Shown: one piece after another, positions 3,572-53,330 of the stretch | How the letters are laid out: each line of letters starts with the position of its first letter | Numbering within the stretch: the stretch's first letter is position 1 | Origin: an uncultured Bacteroidales bacterium | GTDB taxonomy: Bacteria > Bacteroidota > Bacteroidia > Bacteroidales > WCHB1-69 | Length of the DNA stretch: 64,000 nucleotides | Assembly (NCBI GenBank): GCA_946624065.1 | Contig: CAMORT010000003.1 | Span: forward strand, 3,593-67,592 | Reading direction: 5' to 3' | Notes under the pieces: generated by a model | What the model was told of the DNA's origin: nothing | Database searches by the model: none | The model's input: only the letters and a program-made list of their open reading frames with translations | Translations under genes and position numbers: made by a program

Positions 3572-4321
3572 ATGGGTCAGAAAGTAAATCCGGTAGGCTT
3601 ACGCCTTGGTATAGTAAGAGGCTGGGATTCTAATTGGTACGGCGGCAAAAATTTCGCCGGTAAGATCGTCGAAGATGACAAGATTAGAAAGTATCTGAAC
3701 GCTAAGTTCTCCAAAGCCGGTATCTCAAAAATTTACATTGAAAGAACTTTGAAACTGGTCACCGTGACCATCAGCACCGCACGTCCGGGTCTCATTATCG
3801 GCAAGGGCGGTCAGGAAGTTGACAAAGTGAAAGAAGAATTGAAAGTCATCACCAACAAGGAGATTCAAATCAACATCGTTGAGGTGAAACGTCCGGATCT
3901 GGACGCTCAGTTGGTGGCACAGAACATCGCCAAGCAGATTGAGGGTCGTGTGGCATACAAGAAAGCCATCAAGACCGCAGTCGCTTCCACCATGCGCGCG
4001 AATGCGGAAGGTATCAAAGTTACCGCCGCTGGCCGTCTGGGTGGCGCCGAAATGGCTCGTTCCGAGCATTTCAAAGAGGGTCGTATCCCGTTGCACACCT
4101 TGAGAGCGGACATCGACTACGCTCCGGTTGAGGCACACACCACTTACGGTTGCATCGGCATCAAGGTTTGGATCTGCCGCGGCATCGTTTATGGCAAGCG
4201 CGACCTCTTCGCCCAAAATGTGGACAGCAAGGATGCCAAGGGCTCTGCCAAACGTCCGTTCCGCGGACCCCGCAAGGGTGGCAACGGTCCCCGCACCAGC
4301 AACAGAAACATGAATAAGTAA
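3572..4321 (+). CDS. rpsC: 30S ribosomal protein S3 (uS3)
   Basis: [14 protein letters not shown]... KH-domain signature; conserved gene order. Confidence 0.97.
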
Positions 4322-23954: not shown

Positions 23955-24602
23955 ATGTCACGGATTCTGAAAATTACGATGATGCTTTGCTGCGGCATTC
24001 TCTTGTTGGGAATGTCGGGTTGCGCCACTGCGCAAGTGGCGCAGGATACGATTGCGGGACCGCAAATTGACACGGTACTTGCTTCGGTGGACACAATGCC
24101 TCCCCTGGCTTCCGGTTACCAGTGGCTCTCCTATCGAGGCAAGGCCGATATCGTCGATACCGGTGGCACACGCACCTGCAACTTCTTCTTTGTGAACCGT
24201 GTGGATAGTATTATCTATTTGAATGTCAGCGCATACGGTATTGAGGTGATGCGGGCGGTGCTAACCCCTGACAGCATCAAATATGTCAACAAACTTACCT
24301 ATCAGTACTATGCGGGCACCTACGCGCCCCTTCGGTTGTTGTTGAAACGGCCGGTGAACTTCGCTCTGGTACAGGACATATTGCAAGGATACGGCGATGA
24401 GCGTCTGGCGCACTCATCCTTTTCGTGCGAATATCATGATTTTGCCGCAATGGATTCCACCCGTTCCTTTTTTACGGAAATGATATTGAAAGACTTGAAT
24501 CATCTGGTTGAAATTCAGGCCCATCTAAAGGTGATACGCTTTGATGTGCCAGGTCCCACGGGTATTAAAATTCCCGAGAAGTTCACGGAACTGAAACTAT
24601 AG
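23955..24602 (+). CDS. DUF4292-like (LolB-fold) lipoprotein
   Basis: Lipobox LLGMSGC. YRGKADIVDTGGTRTCNFFFVNRVDSIIYLNVSAYGIEVMRAVLTPDSIKYVN resembles DUF4292. The ATG abuts the upstream stop. Confidence 0.6.
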   Translation: MSRILKITMMLCCGILLLGMSGCATAQVAQDTIAGPQIDTVLASVDTMPPLASGYQWLSYRGKADIVDTGGTRTCNFFFVNRVDSIIYLNVSAYGIEVMRAVLTPDSIKYVNKLTYQYYAGTYAPLRLLLKRPVNFALVQDILQGYGDERLAHSSFSCEYHDFAAMDSTRSFFTEMILKDLNHLVEIQAHLKVIRFDVPGPTGIKIPEKFTELKL

Positions 24603-25516
24603 TGGTGATGCGTTCCGATCAAGTGAAGCAATGGATTCTGGATGCCGGTTTCTCTCATGTGGGCATTGCTCCGGCGCACGCTTTGTGCGAGGCGGAGGAG
24701 CGGTTTATGGCTGCCATAGGGGAGGGGAGGCACGCGGACATGCGCTTCCTGGAACGCGATGTGCACAAGCGCTTCGATCCTGTGGAACTGCTCCCCGGGT
24801 GCCAGAGTGTCATTGTGGCGGCTCTCGATTACCGCATTGCCGAGCAACCCGCCAGCGACAAGTACCGGACTGCCCGTTACACTTGGATTGAGGACTATCA
24901 TGTGCTGGTGAAACGGATGTTGCAAGAAGTGGTGAGCAAGATGTCGGAACAGAATTCGTCGGCGCAATGCCGCATCACGGTGGACAGCTCCTGCATTTCG
25001 GAAAAGAACTGGGCGGTAGAGGCCGGGGTTGGCTGCTATGGCAAAAACGGTCTGGTGCACAACGATGACGGGTCTTATTTCGTGTTCGGCATTATTTTGA
25101 CCACTTGCGCCTTCGATCACTACGATTCTCCGAAAAAATCGGACTGCGGCGATTGCATGTTGTGTGTGAACAGTTGTCCGGCCCAGGCATTGTCACCCTA
25201 TAAAGTGGATGCGAACAAATGCTTTGCCTATCAGACGGTGGAGAATAAAAATACTGATAATGAGGTGTTTGTAAGGGCTCCATTGGTCTTTGGATGCGAT
25301 TGTTGTCAGGAGGTTTGTCCAAAAAACAAAAAAAATGCCGGTCTGCGTCCGAATGTATTGAAAAGTTCATTATTTTTGCGGCTCCAAAATGAGGAGATGG
25401 AAAACCTCTCACCGGAGGAATTCAAAACCTATTTTGGAGACACTGCGATGGCACGAAGGAAGTATGAGCGATTTAGCCGTGCCATATCTGCTAAAAAGTC
25501 TAAAAATTCAGAATAA
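24602..25516 (+). CDS. queG: tRNA epoxyqueuosine(34) reductase
   Basis: 4Fe-4S motifs CGDCMLCVNSCP and GCDCCQEVCP, and the overall QueG layout. The start is GTG at 24602 or ATG at 24608. Confidence 0.85.
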   Translation: MVMRSDQVKQWILDAGFSHVGIAPAHALCEAEERFMAAIGEGRHADMRFLERDVHKRFDPVELLPGCQSVIVAALDYRIAEQPASDKYRTARYTWIEDYHVLVKRMLQEVVSKMSEQNSSAQCRITVDSSCISEKNWAVEAGVGCYGKNGLVHNDDGSYFVFGIILTTCAFDHYDSPKKSDCGDCMLCVNSCPAQALSPYKVDANKCFAYQTVENKNTDNEVFVRAPLVFGCDCCQEVCPKNKKNAGLRPNVLKSSLFLRLQNEEMENLSPEEFKTYFGDTAMARRKYERFSRAISAKKSKNSE

Positions 25517-26499: not shown

Positions 26500-26581
26500 G
26501 CCCGGATGGCGGAAGTGGTAGACGCGCACGTTTCAGGTGCGTGTGCCGAAAGGCGTGCAGGTTCAAGTCCTGTTCCGGGCA
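26500..26581 (+). tRNA. tRNA-Leu (anticodon CAG)
   Basis: Acceptor stem GCCCGGA / TCCGGGC. D arm TGGCGGAAGTGGTAGACGC is typical of tRNA-Leu. Anticodon stem CACGT / GCGTG with loop TTCAGGT. Long variable arm, T arm GGTTCAAGTCC, and no encoded CCA. Confidence 0.85.
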
Positions 26582-26586
26582 CTGAA
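26566..26586 (+). repeat. attL-like copy of a 21-bp direct repeat (AGTCCTGTTCCGGGCACTGAA), covering the last 16 nt of tRNA-Leu(CAG) plus 5 nt
   Basis: Identical 21-mer at 31298-31318. Confidence 0.85.
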
Positions 26587-26711: not shown

Positions 26712-26719
26712 TATCTTTG
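26712..26719 (+). promoter_or_regulatory. -7 promoter box TAtcTTTG for the YhcG-like gene
   Basis: TAnnTTTG, 22 nt upstream of the ATG at 26741. It shows that the track's TTG start at 26717 is an artefact. Confidence 0.5.
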
Positions 26720-26740
26720 CATTCTAAAAACAACAAAACT

Positions 26741-27907
26741 ATGACTAACAAAACGACATTTATTTCCCGTGACATCATGACTGCCGATGAGGGCTATGTG
26801 CAATGGATGGCTGACATCAAGCAGCGTTTCCGTCAAAGCCAATTAAAAGCGGCAGTTCGAGTGAACACCACCATGCTTGAATTTTACTGGAGTGTAGGCC
26901 GTGATTTGGTGGCACTGCGTGCTGAAGAGCGTTGGGGATCTGGCGTGGTTAAACAATTTGCCCTTGACATGCGGCAGGCATTTCCTAATGAAACAGGATT
27001 CTCATACTCCAATGTAAAATACATGAAACAATGGTATTTATATTATTATGAGAGAGTTATAAAATGTCAGCAAGCGGCTAACGAAAAAAGCCACCAGCTT
27101 GGTGGCCAATTGGAAGTCGTTGAAAAAAGCCAGCAAATTGCTGGCCAAATTGATATTCTGAAGAAAGGCCAGCAGCCTGCTGGCCAATTAGAGATGCCCG
27201 AGATTTTTGGAAGAATACCGTGGTTCCATCATGTCCAGATCATTTCCAAATGTAAGACTCTTGATGATGCTTTATTCTATATCGATCGAGTGGTGGCAGA
27301 AGGCTGGAGCCGCAGCAAACTTGAGAACCAAATTGCCGCTAATCTTTACGGCAGTCAAGGTGCAGCGGTTAATAATTTTGCAAGCACATTGCCTTCCACA
27401 CAGAGCCAATTGGCGAAAGAACTATTGAAAGACCCTTATCATTTCGACTTCCTGTCCATGGAAGAGGAGTATGTGGAAAAAGACTTGGAAGACGCCCTTG
27501 TCTCGAAGGTCACGCAGTTCCTGTTGGAGTTGGGGAAAGGTTTTTCATATGTGGGTCGTCAGATGGAGTTGCAAATGCCCGGAGGGCAGACCTTCTTTCC
27601 CGACTTGTTGTTCTATCACATACCGCAGCACCGCTATGTTGTCGTTGAGTTGAAGGTGGTGAAGTTCATCCCCGAGTTTGCCGGCAAACTGAATTTCTAT
27701 GTCTCTGCCGTTGACGAGTTGTTGCGTGCTGAGGGCGACAACCCCACCGTAGGACTGATTATCTGCAAATCGAGCGACAAGACCGTTGTGGAATGGTCGT
27801 TGAAAGACATCAGCAAGCCTCTTGGCGTATCCACCTACCAACTTGAGCAGGTGGTCGCTCGCACGGTGAGAGAGTTGGAACAGAGGAAAGGAGAGGGACG
27901 GAAATAG
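26741..27907 (+). CDS. YhcG/DUF1016-family PD-(D/E)xK nuclease domain protein
   Basis: DUF1016 N-domain pattern (NTTMLEFYWSVGRDLV...WGSGVVKQFALDMRQAFPNETGFSYSNVKYMKQWY). C-terminal nuclease core (FLLELGKGFSYVGRQ...FFPDLLFYHIPQHRYVVVELKVVKF...GKLNFY). Confidence 0.8.
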   Translation: MTNKTTFISRDIMTADEGYVQWMADIKQRFRQSQLKAAVRVNTTMLEFYWSVGRDLVALRAEERWGSGVVKQFALDMRQAFPNETGFSYSNVKYMKQWYLYYYERVIKCQQAANEKSHQLGGQLEVVEKSQQIAGQIDILKKGQQPAGQLEMPEIFGRIPWFHHVQIISKCKTLDDALFYIDRVVAEGWSRSKLENQIAANLYGSQGAAVNNFASTLPSTQSQLAKELLKDPYHFDFLSMEEEYVEKDLEDALVSKVTQFLLELGKGFSYVGRQMELQMPGGQTFFPDLLFYHIPQHRYVVVELKVVKFIPEFAGKLNFYVSAVDELLRAEGDNPTVGLIICKSSDKTVVEWSLKDISKPLGVSTYQLEQVVARTVRELEQRKGEGRK

Positions 27908-28220: not shown

Positions 28221-30242
28221 TTAGAAAGGCACATTGTCAAATAATGACCTCATCTTTTCTCTCTCATTATAAATTTCATAGATCGCATTATCAGCCATAC
28301 TTTCACCAAGTTTGGAAGCTCTTTCATAATACTTTATCGCCTCATTGTCATCTTTCTCAACCACAATTCCATTGTGATAATATTCTCCAATCATAAAAAT
28401 CGCCTTCGCATAATCATCCTTGGCCGCTTGTTGGAAATATCCCAAAGCCGCTGACTTGTCTTCTGTAACTCCTTTGCCATTATAAAGACAATATCCGAGC
28501 ATAAAAATTGCAGGAACATAATTCCCGGATGCTGCCATCTTAAACCATCTTACAGCCTCTTCCTCATTCTCTTCCACTGCATATCCGTTAAAATAATGAT
28601 ACCCTATCATACATTTGGCGCCCACATGACCTGCCGCTGCCGCTTTCTGAAAACATTGAAAAGCCCATTTTTTATTTACTTTGGTCCCATCACCGTAATA
28701 GTAGCAACAGCCTGATGAGAACAATCCACTTAAATGGTTTTTTGACGCAGAAACTCTGAACCATTTTGCTGCCTCCTTCATGTTTTTCCTTACACCCTCG
28801 CCATATTCGTACATTAACCCCACTTGGAATTGAGCCTCCTCATTTCCAAGAGTAGCAGCCGAATAATACCACTTATACGCTTCCTGCCGATCTTCTGTCA
28901 TCCCATTTTTACCATCACAATAACTGTCTGCAAGAAAGCATTGGGCATCGGTATCTCCCATCTTCGCTGCCTTGCGATATGCGGCAACGATCTCTTCTGT
29001 AGGAGCATGGAGTTCCTCAAGACAATAAGCGATAAATACTTGAGCAGTAGCATCGCCTTTTGCAGCCGATTTTTCAAATAGTTGCATTGCCTTTGAATAG
29101 TCTAAGGGAGAACCTTCTCCTCTGAAATAACTTAGCCCGAGATTGAAATGAGCGTGACGATGTCCTTGTTCGACTGCCTTAATAAACCACTTGTTTCCCT
29201 CAACGATGTCTTTTTCAACGCCCTGTCCGTAAAAATAACTGTTCCCCAAATCGCATTGACACTTGGCATCCCCTTTTTCGGCAGCTTCCTTTATCCAACT
29301 GATAGGGCGGTCCTGAATCATATATTCTTCTCCCATGAAACCATTGCACCACCAATTCGTAGAGACATTCCACGAAATGCAATTCAATGCACCACCCTTC
29401 CGAACAGCCTCCAACGCAGGTATGCCGACAACACTACATTTTGGCATCGCAGCTGAAATTTGTTCCAGAGCCTGTTCATCCTCTGGTATTCCTAACTGAG
29501 GGACTAAAACCAATGAACCAATCTGGAGAAAGTTGATGTATGCCCAACTACGTTTATGCTTGCGTTTCACATTGTACTCCAACGGAATAACTTCCACATA
29601 TTCATCCAATGCCTTGATATACTTTCGCGCCATTGATGCATCGAAATCAGCATAGTTGGTCATAAGGACACGATTGTTGCCAACATAATGAACAATGCCA
29701 TCGCTGTGACCCAACATCTCTTGCTTATCCCAAGGTAAGAATACAATACCGCATTGGAAAGCTTCTTCAAGCATACGGATAACTTTCACCTGAGATTTGT
29801 CTTTATTCTCAAAGAACACCTTCTCCGTCATTATTATTTTGTCATCGCATTTTACAATATTCCCCCCATCAATCACCAGATCCAGATTCGCAATTTCTCC
29901 TTCGTGCAGACAATCAATATTCCCCACCTTATTGACATCGGTGATAGTTCTCCGGAGATGTGGTTTTTGAAGATAGTCGGGATTATACTTGTAAAAGACA
30001 AAATGGTTCCAATCAGTCTGAATAGGCATATAATCACGACACCAGATGTCTCTTGTATTTGTCAAAAGCCTATGGTCTATACATTTCTCATGTAGAATTT
30101 TATGCAAGCTTTCATACAATATCGGACACTCTTTTGGGAGCCAATCCGAGAAAAAGACCGTGTCAGTCATTCTGTCTACTCCGTGACAGCCGTGATAGAC
30201 ACCATATAAGGTGTTACCGTTTTTGATATTGCCATTAGCCAT
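28221..30242 (-). CDS. pentein-superfamily (agmatine deiminase / PAD-like) enzyme fused to about 10 Sel1-like repeats; 673 aa, no signal peptide
   Basis: Motifs in canonical order: DIWCRDYMP, VIDGGNIVKCDDKIIMTEK, MLGHSDGIVHYV, KGGALNCISWN (Cys288). Sel1 repeats span about aa 305-660 (e.g. AAEKGDAKCQCDLGNSYFYGQGVEKD). Confidence 0.7.
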   Translation of the reverse strand: MANGNIKNGNTLYGVYHGCHGVDRMTDTVFFSDWLPKECPILYESLHKILHEKCIDHRLLTNTRDIWCRDYMPIQTDWNHFVFYKYNPDYLQKPHLRRTITDVNKVGNIDCLHEGEIANLDLVIDGGNIVKCDDKIIMTEKVFFENKDKSQVKVIRMLEEAFQCGIVFLPWDKQEMLGHSDGIVHYVGNNRVLMTNYADFDASMARKYIKALDEYVEVIPLEYNVKRKHKRSWAYINFLQIGSLVLVPQLGIPEDEQALEQISAAMPKCSVVGIPALEAVRKGGALNCISWNVSTNWWCNGFMGEEYMIQDRPISWIKEAAEKGDAKCQCDLGNSYFYGQGVEKDIVEGNKWFIKAVEQGHRHAHFNLGLSYFRGEGSPLDYSKAMQLFEKSAAKGDATAQVFIAYCLEELHAPTEEIVAAYRKAAKMGDTDAQCFLADSYCDGKNGMTEDRQEAYKWYYSAATLGNEEAQFQVGLMYEYGEGVRKNMKEAAKWFRVSASKNHLSGLFSSGCCYYYGDGTKVNKKWAFQCFQKAAAAGHVGAKCMIGYHYFNGYAVEENEEEAVRWFKMAASGNYVPAIFMLGYCLYNGKGVTEDKSAALGYFQQAAKDDYAKAIFMIGEYYHNGIVVEKDDNEAIKYYERASKLGESMADNAIYEIYNEREKMRSLFDNVPF

Positions 30243-30243
30243 A

Positions 30244-30999
30244 CTAATTCCATTTTTCAGTTATACCGCTTCTAACAAATCTCCATTGTCTTGGGTCCTG
30301 TCTATAATAATGATTCTTATCTACCTTAATATATTTGTCCTGATTGGCTATGTAATCCGCTTCGCTAATTATTCTTTCCCCATTCCAAACCCTATTATCT
30401 TTTTTATCCGGTTGTAAATATACTGCAACATTTTTTCGTGTAAGAGGGGCCCCTAATGTGAAGTCATTCCCTTTATGTTGTACCCATTCAATAGTAGTCC
30501 TTTTGGCTGAATCAAATGAAATACCATAGGGAAACATATCATCGTATATATGAGTTGAATGCGCATCAAAAATAGAATCCGTTTTCAGTTCGCTTTCCTT
30601 TTTTAGCACACGGTAAGAACGAATGAGGAAAGATGCTCGATACCTTTCATCTTCATTTTCAAAAGTCACATCAATTCCAGATTGATGAAAATTGAAACTT
30701 CCCAAATCAAAATATGGGAACTTTCCATTATCATAACAGAACAAAGAATGCGATCTCTTGGCATTCGTATGATACATAATGTAATCCTTTATGGAACCTT
30801 CCTCTTCGTGATAGTATAATTCTATCGACCCCAAATCAATGATGAATTGACCATTGACGAGAAAAAATCCTTCACATAGAATTTTTCGCGCGTATGGCTC
30901 AAAACATTCAGCCACCTTATTCTCATTCCAGTCGGGACTTTTACTCATTGCATTTCTTTGTTTCCCAAATTCTTCGAGAATCGTAATCAAATCTTTCAT
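30244..30999 (-). CDS. 251-aa protein of unknown function, spaced 1 nt from the pentein-Sel1 gene
   Basis: Its TAG stop at 30244-30246 is 1 nt from the downstream ATG at 30242. No signal peptide. There is only a weak motif-level resemblance to AAG/MPG-type glycosylases (see findings). Confidence 0.6.
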   Translation of the reverse strand: MKDLITILEEFGKQRNAMSKSPDWNENKVAECFEPYARKILCEGFFLVNGQFIIDLGSIELYYHEEEGSIKDYIMYHTNAKRSHSLFCYDNGKFPYFDLGSFNFHQSGIDVTFENEDERYRASFLIRSYRVLKKESELKTDSIFDAHSTHIYDDMFPYGISFDSAKRTTIEWVQHKGNDFTLGAPLTRKNVAVYLQPDKKDNRVWNGERIISEADYIANQDKYIKVDKNHYYRQDPRQWRFVRSGITEKWN

Positions 31000-31032
31000 A
31001 ATAATGTTGTTTTAGTTATTTAATTCCAAGTG

Positions 31033-31040
31033 CAAAGGTA
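31033..31040 (-). promoter_or_regulatory. -7 promoter box TAccTTTG (minus strand) for the two-gene module
   Basis: The reverse complement of CAAAGGTA; 34 nt upstream of the ATG at 30999. Confidence 0.5.
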
Positions 31041-31297
31041 TATCGAAAGGTAGGTTTGAAAAAATCTTTTCTGTTAAAAGTTGTTAAAGTTTTCCAAAAA
31101 GTTATTTATTATTCTATTATATTTAAAAACAAATCATTATCTATTTTATTATTAACAGAATAGAAATGCTTAAAGTTGGTCATAATTTGGTCATGTTTTA
31201 GAAGTTTTGTTGGTCGTAGTAGTCATTTTTAAGAATAATATAAACTGTCAAAATTCACAATGTCAATTAAGAAGAAACAACAAGAACTTCTCTCATG

Positions 31298-31318
31298 AGT
31301 CCTGTTCCGGGCACTGAA
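31298..31318 (+). repeat. attR-like copy of the 21-bp direct repeat (AGTCCTGTTCCGGGCACTGAA)
   Basis: Identical to 26566-26586. No tRNA body precedes it. Confidence 0.85.
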
Positions 31319-31320
31319 AA

Positions 31321-31359
31321 AAAGGTAGGGATGAATGATCATTCGCCCCTACCTTTTTT
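31321..31359 (+). terminator. hairpin plus T run immediately after the attR copy (probably the original tRNA-Leu terminator)
   Basis: AGGTAGGG / CCCTACCT stem with an inner GAATGA/TCATTC pairing, an A run before it and TTTTTT after it. Confidence 0.65.
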
Positions 31360-53242: not shown

Positions 53243-53326
53243 GCCCAGGTGGTGGAATTGGTAGACACGCTACTTTGAGGGGGTAGTGGGAGTACTCCCG
53301 TGCAAGTTCGACTCTTGTCCTGGGCA
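53243..53326 (+). tRNA. tRNA-Leu (anticodon GAG)
   Basis: Acceptor GCCCAGG / CCTGGGC. D arm TGGTGGAATTGGTAGACAC. Anticodon stem CTACT / GGTAG with loop TTGAGGG. Long variable arm and T arm AGTTCGACTCT. Confidence 0.85.
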
Positions 53327-53330
53327 CTGA

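Follow-up and report, generated by a model that had tools for sequence, protein, structure and literature searches.

A mobile two-gene cassette of Bacteroidales pairs a pentein-family enzyme, often linked to Sel1 repeats, with an unannotated partner protein

The DNA analysed here is a 64,000-nucleotide (nt) stretch from an uncultured Bacteroidales bacterium of the WCHB1-69 lineage (assembly GCA_946624065.1, contig CAMORT010000003.1, forward-strand positions 3,593 to 67,592), referred to below in its whole length as the window. The subject of this report is an operon of two minus-strand genes: the first encodes a 251-residue protein, which we call the partner, and the second a 673-residue protein in which a pentein catalytic domain is fused to an array of Sel1 repeats. 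We found that this operon is one copy of a mobile accessory cassette of Bacteroidales, composed of two obligate parts, the partner and the pentein, and of one optional part, the Sel1 module. The genes and domains of the operon are as follows.

30244..30999, minus strand: partner gene, 251 aa, first in the operon, with its stop 1 nt before the ATG of the fusion gene
28221..30242, minus strand: pentein::Sel1 fusion gene, 673 aa
29343..30170, minus strand: pentein catalytic domain (PAD_porph/agmatine-deiminase-like), residues ~25-300, placed by Pfam, family conservation, AlphaFold2 (AF2) with Foldseek, and residue mapping to 6b10/2jer
30033-30035 (D70), 29706-29708 (H179), 29700-29702 (D181) and 29379-29381 (C288), minus strand: pentein catalytic codons
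28254..29297, minus strand: Sel1-repeat array, residues ~316-663 (Pfam Sel1)

For the survey of the family, one genome per species was scanned, and the best 80 of the at least 541 genomes with pentein relatives were taken for the comparison of loci. Nearly all of these 80 came from rumen or gut Bacteroidales (Prevotella, Paludibacteraceae, Bacteroidaceae). At E<=1e-3 the pentein domain had 2775 relatives, mostly stand-alone proteins of 276-330 residues from metagenome-assembled genomes of Bacteroidales, a minority with Sel1, and those that are named carry the NCBI label 'agmatine deiminase family protein'. In about 74 of the 80 loci, the pentein gene was immediately preceded (-29 to +28 nt) by an open reading frame (ORF) of 190-280 residues on the same strand, and these upstream proteins formed a single BLAST-linked family that included the 251-residue protein of the window. 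In loci L052 and L066 partner and pentein were joined in frame into a single polypeptide, which argues that the two proteins act together. The 251-residue gene is therefore an obligate partner of the pentein, and the gene layout shows a translationally coupled operon. The two proteins differ in their rate of change, identity being ~30-56% within the partner family versus 52-81% for the pentein. The surroundings of the cassette varied by lineage, with SecG/YceG/ClpB in one and AsnA/DnaX in another, and such differing contexts indicate that the two genes have moved around together. The pair was present on 3 contigs of viral collections, and the pentein was detected in 4 of 2.9 million viral contigs, in one unverified phage record and in 3 plasmids. 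This rarity in viral contigs led us to reject the idea of a phage-borne gene, and the cassette appears to be mainly chromosomal.

The N-terminal part of the fusion protein matched the Pfam family PAD_porph (PF04371) over residues 60-292 with 77.8 bits against a cutoff of 25, and carried the guanidino-enzyme motifs DIWCRDYMP, VIDGGNIVKC, GHSDGIVHY and GGALNCISWN. In a 44-sequence family alignment W67, R69, D70, H179 and D181 were invariant and C288 was conserved in at least 90% of the members. Alignment of the profile with proteins of the PDB placed WCRD on the WIRD of the C. jejuni agmatine deiminase, GHSD on the H-x-D (H218/D220) of the E. faecalis agmatine deiminase AgD, and C288 on the nucleophile C315 (6b10/6b2w) or C357 (2jer). 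The AF2 model of the pentein reached a mean predicted local distance difference test score (pLDDT) of 79.2, with residues 1-24 and 301-311 disordered; many homologues start near M25 of the window protein. Foldseek returned 116 PDB matches at E<=1e-3, penteins throughout among the matches listed, the best being the agmatine deiminase 6b10 (E 2e-13, template modelling score (TM) 0.66), followed by PPAD and DDAH; the PPAD-type peptidyl-arginine deiminases had a TM of 0.57. The model was thus consistent with the expected five-fold alpha/beta propeller. As judged by this mapping the Asp/His/Asp/Cys site is intact, and membership of the family predicts that the enzyme hydrolyses a guanidino group and thereby releases ammonia.

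The enzyme is, by sequence and model, a member of the pentein/PAD_porph family that is neither an AguA nor PPAD-like. A canonical AguA identity was rejected, as the AguA equivalog profile TIGR03380 scored 41 bits against its cutoff of 381.8 and PRK13551 scored 39.9 against 483; the NCBIfam agmatine deiminase profile was covered in its C-terminal third only. The pairing typical of AguA was rejected as well, the conserved neighbour being the unannotated partner, which has no CN_hydrolase (AguB) or other Pfam or NCBIfam match. The likeness to the agmatine deiminases (6b10, 2jer, 3hvm, 1vkp) lies in the fold and in the Asp/His/Asp/Cys machinery, which follows the same order along the sequence. In contrast to them, the pentein domain described here spans only ~276 residues, is 15-18% identical, has no AguB beside it, and is obligately paired or fused with the partner, often Sel1-bearing, and mobile. 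PPAD of P. gingivalis (4yt9, 5ak7), which acts on arginine in proteins and peptides, is likewise a Bacteroidota pentein of the same Pfam family. However, PPAD is secreted, with a signal peptide, an Ig-like domain and a C-terminal domain for type IX secretion, whereas the fusion protein has none of these and carries Sel1 repeats instead. Read from the sequence, its N-terminus contains no hydrophobic signal segment and no lipobox, which supports a cytoplasmic location, and a secreted enzyme of the PPAD type was rejected on the missing signal segment and the Sel1 nature of the C-terminal part.

Sel1 repeats are protein-binding scaffolds. In the fusion protein Pfam accepted eight stretches of Sel1 (PF08238; 216.5 bits), and by eye we counted nine full repeats and one partial repeat in residues 316-663. 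Of 81 non-redundant related loci, 21 had Sel1 fused to the pentein; at least 17 encoded it in a separate gene without signal peptide, starting 3-70 nt downstream of the pentein; and ~40 had no Sel1 in the neighbourhood. The recurrent fusion and fission suggest a real functional tie between Sel1 and the pentein. At the same time, half of the cassettes manage without Sel1, which makes it an accessory and not a core part, so that protein targeting guided by Sel1 cannot be the core mechanism. In several Sel1-fused cassettes (L001:7436-8386; L010, L015) the pentein is directly followed, on the same strand, by a gene for a MutT-like NUDIX protein of 125-128 residues, and in L001 a YgjP/SprT-like metallohydrolase gene then follows; these genes may form an extended operon.

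Most of what had been said of this locus in a preliminary description, made from the letters alone, was borne out. The 673-residue minus-strand ORF with its four quoted motifs is present exactly as given; the proposed pentein identity, with an intact Asp/His/Cys set, was recovered by both the Pfam and the AF2-Foldseek comparisons, with D70, H179, D181 and C288 mapping to catalytic residues of 6b10/2jer; the nine to ten Sel1 repeats agree with the counts above; the claim that signal peptide and lipobox are lacking fits the N-terminus; and the ORF at 30244-30999 ends 1 nt before the fusion ATG, where an upstream partner had been placed. The description also knew of no characterised precedent for such a fusion. 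None was found in the searched literature, but the fusion is not unique, as its recurrence in 21 of the 81 loci shows.

The partner was matched by no family of Pfam, NCBIfam, PADLOC or PHROGs, and by no protein of the PDB in a sequence-profile search. Its family is small, an exhaustive profile search of 1.84 billion representatives having yielded 351 clusters. Across 70 divergent cassette partners, E60, Y62, H105, D110, L125, R127 and R188 were 100% invariant, and across 96 representatives of the partner family G44, E60, Y62, D72, G108, E114, L125, R127 and W172 were invariant; H77, H105, D110 and R188 were conserved at 90% or more. The invariant polar residues look like the signature of an active or ligand-binding site and not like that of a passive inhibitor. 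The AF2 model of the partner was confident (pLDDT 90.1, predicted TM score 0.88). Searched against the PDB with Foldseek, it had no fold match, the best E value being 0.19 in a set that includes 1bnk, 1ewn and 1f4r. The only structural matches of the model at E<=1e-3 were models of two viral proteins, A0A3G5A9Y1 of Hyperionvirus and A0A1V0SB56 of Catovirus, at a TM of ~0.4. These giant-virus proteins are uncharacterised Klosneuvirus proteins and carry no functional information.

The partner motifs E-I-E-x-Y-Y and L-I-R-S resemble the ETEAY and LLR motifs of the glycosylases AAG/MPG, and this lead was tested. When 96 partner members were compared with 24,736 Pfam families, the best weak match was Pur_DNA_glyco (PF02245), at E 0.0014 and in one of the 96 members; the partner of the window had no PF02245 match, and the Pfam family threshold for MPG/AAG was not reached. 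Profile-profile alignment with hhalign gave a maximum-accuracy alignment of 134-137 columns at an HH probability of ~1%. At that same probability, E60/Y62 fell on the catalytic E125 and the stacking Y127 of AAG, D72/H77 on D132/H136, L125-x-R127 on L180-x-R182, and R188 on the conserved Arg of R-I-G-I. The Sum_probs of the comparison was 67.8-69.5, versus a maximum of 43.7 in 300 column-shuffled, block-shuffled or reversed nulls and of 40.9 when either profile was compared with real families unrelated to it (34 comparisons). Alignment of the partner with the single human AAG sequence by hhalign was negative. The low-probability alignment thus pairs E-x-E-x-Y, D...H, L-I-R and a more distal Arg of the partner with those of human AAG and bacterial MPG (PF02245; 1ewn, 1f4r), order and rough spacing agreeing. 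The partner departs from these enzymes by an additional helical hairpin at its N-terminus and by its C-terminal half, which is unlike theirs. An assignment to AAG/MPG by fold was rejected, as Foldseek found no match in the PDB, and what survives is a remote collinear profile similarity. A remote MPG-like relationship of the partner is, from these profiles, probable by a modest measure; the partner is not assignable to the MPG family, and may nevertheless work like one of its members. In the partner-family protein P0274, residues ~250-556 form a 300-residue C-terminal extension with the motif 'VGMNPSG', reminiscent of motif A of UDG/SMUG. A UDG-like reading of this extension was rejected, no Pfam match being found even at E<=10.

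Other proteins that contain the partner domain, and the neighbours of the cassette, point to a nucleic-acid and conflict setting. The domain is fused to a PDDEXK_4 nuclease in P0373 and to SMEK_N in P0263 and in L106, the latter a scaffold from human faeces; in P0279 it is joined to an RlaP nucleotidyltransferase of the RNA-repair type. Short prokaryotic Argonaute systems use SMEK among their nuclease domains (PMC10810196). The pentein would hold the slot that nucleases fill in other proteins with the partner domain. A gene for a YhcG-type nuclease was near the cassette in four loci, and its convergent position in the window recurs in L061 (79% nucleotide identity) and L028; other recurrent neighbours were Schlafen/AlbA_2-HATPase proteins, ORF6N proteins and MutT-like NUDIX proteins. 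A distant pentein on a Flammeovirga plasmid, which has no partner, lies between weakly HNH-like and ScaI-like genes, with an exonuclease gene adjoining.

Two further observations concern atypical members of the system. A distant pentein (39% identity) with a 143-residue N-terminal extension is encoded on plasmid pE2-28 of Prevotella sp. E2-28 (L104, 6566-9002), where it is followed by a hypothetical gene of 233 residues and a '5-fold beta-flower' protein and adjoins an SOS-type block of S24 peptidase and Y-family polymerase; no partner homologue was detected at this locus. A domain of ~100 residues (LPDE[IL]W..IN..F..YW..EIG.GN.FD.D), matched by no Pfam family, is common to the C-terminus of a 390-residue pentein (L082:7992-9164) and the N-terminus of the partner P0368 (residues 1-125), and may serve the system as one more adaptor module.

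In the window the cassette lies in a 4.7-kb islet with perfect 21-nt direct repeats at both ends, whose features, with those at its borders, are the following.

26500..26582, plus strand: tRNA-Leu(CAG), the integration target of the islet (ARAGORN; Rfam tRNA 46.9 bits)
26566..26586, plus strand: left 21-nt direct repeat, AGTCCTGTTCCGGGCACTGAA, the tRNA 3' end plus 4 nt, attL-like (repeat search, 100% identity)
26717..27907, plus strand: gene for a YhcG-type PD-(D/E)XK nuclease (DUF1016_N + YhcG_C), islet cargo, convergent with the cassette
31000..31297, minus strand: AT-rich leader, the presumed promoter region of the partner-pentein operon, placed from the gene layout
31298..31318, plus strand: right copy of the 21-nt direct repeat, AGTCCTGTTCCGGGCACTGAA, attR-like (repeat search and sequence)
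31318..31359, plus strand: inverted repeat with 21-nt arms, 90% complementary, then a T-run, just outside the islet

The islet is integrated at the tRNA gene, as a direct repeat of the tRNA 3' end surrounds low-GC foreign DNA; the guanine-plus-cytosine (GC) fraction was 0.36-0.43 across 28-31 kb versus ~0.48 in the flanks. The hairpin with its T-run at 31318-31359 looks like the original terminator of the tRNA-Leu gene, displaced by the insertion. Base composition and repeats support horizontal acquisition, and the preliminary view of an AT-rich, acquired tRNA islet is upheld by them. Between the repeats there are three ORFs only, the YhcG nuclease, the fusion gene and the partner. The left flank holds the housekeeping genes for LolB1, QueG and KpsF/KdsD, and the right flank those for RsmI, enolase and an RprY-type two-component system. 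Sigma-70-like matches were seen on the minus strand at 31266-31237 and 31143-31116, in a scan that does not cover Bacteroidota promoters.

The YhcG gene scored 186 and 111 bits with its two Pfam domains and matched the PADLOC candidate-defence family PDC-S02 (E 6e-132). At 27083-27199 it contains three in-frame tandem copies of a 39-nt unit, with 67-72% identity to the first copy; the unit encodes a 13-residue repeat (EKSHQLGGQLEVV and variants) that interrupts DUF1016_N, so that the Pfam match spans 179 residues for a profile of 137 positions. On the left side, two genes away from the islet, is queG (tRNA epoxyqueuosine reductase; window 24602-25516; TIGR00276, 220.7 bits), probably a coincidental housekeeping neighbour; its only interest here is that one speculative reading of the cassette, given below, involves 7-deazaguanine chemistry. 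A second tRNA-Leu gene, with anticodon GAG, is present at window 53243-53327.

The cassette can be set beside two groups of known systems. Closest to it in proposed function, the glycosylases Brig1/Brig2 (UDG-like) and Dag1/Dag2 (helix-hairpin-helix) destroy phage DNA with modified bases, have been shown experimentally to be anti-phage effectors against phages with modified guanines, and include the amidine-bearing deoxyarchaeosine among their targets (PMC11078745; bioRxiv 10.1101/2025.10.29.685425). Like them, the cassette consists of small mobile accessory genes in an AT-rich region, with a putative glycosylase-type module; they differ from it in having other folds and in being single proteins with neither pentein nor Sel1. 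The type IV modification-dependent restriction enzymes combine a reader with a PD-(D/E)XK or HNH nuclease, which is mirrored in the fusions of the partner domain to the PDDEXK_4 and SMEK nucleases, whereas the cassette has a pentein hydrolase where these enzymes have the nuclease, and the partner would be the putative reader. In the searched literature no paper brought PAD_porph or agmatine deiminase together with Sel1 or with a role in defence or as a toxin, and the mention of agmatine deiminase in PMC9881135 is a table entry only.

Mobility and neighbours make a defence, toxin or conflict role of the cassette plausible. The reading we favour, with a probability of roughly 0.38, is that of a conflict or defence cassette, probably directed at nucleic acids, with an MPG-like partner and a pentein that would hydrolyse a presented substrate or a protein. 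The partner would be a very divergent base-recognition or base-excision module of the MPG/AAG type that engages nucleic acid; the pentein would hydrolyse a guanidino or amidino group either of a bound protein or of a modified base or nucleotide that the partner presents; the Sel1 array would be an accessory part that adapts the system to a protein ligand or senses one; and the biological role would be defence against phages or other mobile DNA. A narrower version is decidedly unlikely as it stands, namely that the divergent MPG-like partner excises or flips an amidino- or guanidino-bearing purine of invader DNA or RNA, for example a 7-deazaguanine of the deoxyarchaeosine type, that the pentein hydrolyses the group and that Sel1 senses phage proteins.

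Several results weigh against the favoured reading. We know of no pentein that acts on nucleic acid, and the presence of Sel1 repeats speaks for a protein ligand. The HH-suite probability of the comparison between partner and MPG was ~1%, with P values of 0.047 and 0.081 for profiles of 11 and 131 sequences. The Viterbi score rested on one 6-column motif and was equalled by block shuffles in 85 of 150 runs, so that it is not informative. AAG was not among the 50 Foldseek matches listed for the partner model. With the PADLOC-DB v2 models, pentein and partner gave only noise (E>0.01), and neither was recognised by PHROGs; a known defence system was rejected on the negative PADLOC result for both proteins. 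As to mobility, no integrase gene was found among the ORFs of the islet, and no empty attachment site in two exact-pattern scans of metagenome contigs, whose strict matching makes this a weak negative. Finally, the preliminary description had pictured a linked partner in an island setting. The link held, with the partner adjacent in ~74 of 80 loci, but many loci sit among housekeeping genes without defence neighbours.

The preliminary description had favoured a protein-arginine-modifying effector. Developed in full, this would be a Sel1-guided protein-arginine deiminase acting as effector or toxin, in which Sel1 captures a phage or host protein, the pentein citrullinates it and the partner is a regulator, an inhibitor or an immunity-like protein. 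The pentein, the Sel1 module and the link to the partner stand, and recurrent fusion and fission tie the Sel1 scaffolds to the enzyme, which has PPAD-type proteins among its structural matches (TM 0.57). The partner evolves much faster than the pentein, as immunity proteins and antitoxins often do, and a small upstream gene with a downstream enzyme and overlapping stop and start resembles toxin-antitoxin pairs. However, Sel1 is not adjacent in about half of the cassettes, so that Sel1 targeting did not hold up as the core of the mechanism, and the closest structures are agmatine deiminases, small-molecule enzymes and not protein-arginine deiminases. Moreover, the invariant polar constellation of the partner is typical of an active or ligand site and not of a mere inhibitor, the occurrence of its domain with nucleases and a nucleotidyltransferase elsewhere suggests a role of its own, and an in-frame fusion of a toxin with its own inhibitor would be unusual. 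We consider an effector of this kind unlikely, if worth keeping in view. The fast evolution of the partner would also suit a selfish, toxin-antitoxin-like module for addiction to the islet or for its stabilisation, with no role beyond its own maintenance, as would a compact, translationally coupled two-gene operon on a mobile islet without integrase. Such a module seems very improbable, given that both proteins are far larger than the usual components of type II toxin-antitoxin systems, that no DNA-binding antitoxin fold was detected by Pfam or by Foldseek of the partner model against the PDB, that single-polypeptide fusions exist, and that often no mobile element is recognisable around the cassette.

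A role in small-molecule metabolism, salvage or detoxification is also rather unlikely, a shade more so than the protein-arginine effector. Here the pentein would deiminate a free guanidino or amidino compound, such as agmatine, a plant arginine analogue or an amidino-nucleobase or nucleoside (archaeosine from methanogen RNA), and the partner would carry out a neighbouring step, perhaps cleaving the N-glycosidic bond of a nucleoside or hydrolysing the ureido or amide product. It is consistent with agmatine deiminases being the top matches in fold and sequence and with the NCBI name, with the near restriction of the best 80 of at least 541 genomes to rumen and gut Bacteroidales, and with the many loci among housekeeping genes; a partner that resembles MPG and retains the catalytic Glu might just as well be an enzyme of nucleosides or nucleobases. 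On the other side, 41 bits is far from the AguA equivalog cutoff of 381.8, and the partner is no CN-hydrolase (AguB) and no known amidase. The patchy distribution, the direct-repeat islet, the low GC and the varied insertion sites are untypical of core metabolism, and a metabolic role would hardly account for the Sel1 fusion or for the fusions of the partner domain to nucleases.

As described in textbooks, penteins serve the metabolism of arginine and polyamines or citrullinate proteins. The cassette described here is real, widespread and uncharacterised, and matches no known system: a compact pentein clade, catalytically intact by sequence, occurs in more than 500 Bacteroidales species and is locked to an unannotated partner. 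For specialists the obligate partner, the fusions and the possible glycosylase link are surprising. If the partner is truly a glycosylase-like module directed at nucleic acids, hydrolysis of guanidino or amidino groups would join the chemistries of bacterial conflict and extend the recently discovered glycosylase-based immunity, and if the base-directed reading is true, the enzyme would be the first of the penteins to act on a base of nucleic acid. Should the system citrullinate proteins instead, bacteria would have in it a protein-arginine deiminase system that works in the cytoplasm and has its targeting built in. The cassette thus represents a large, testable and uncharacterised gene system in gut and rumen bacteria.

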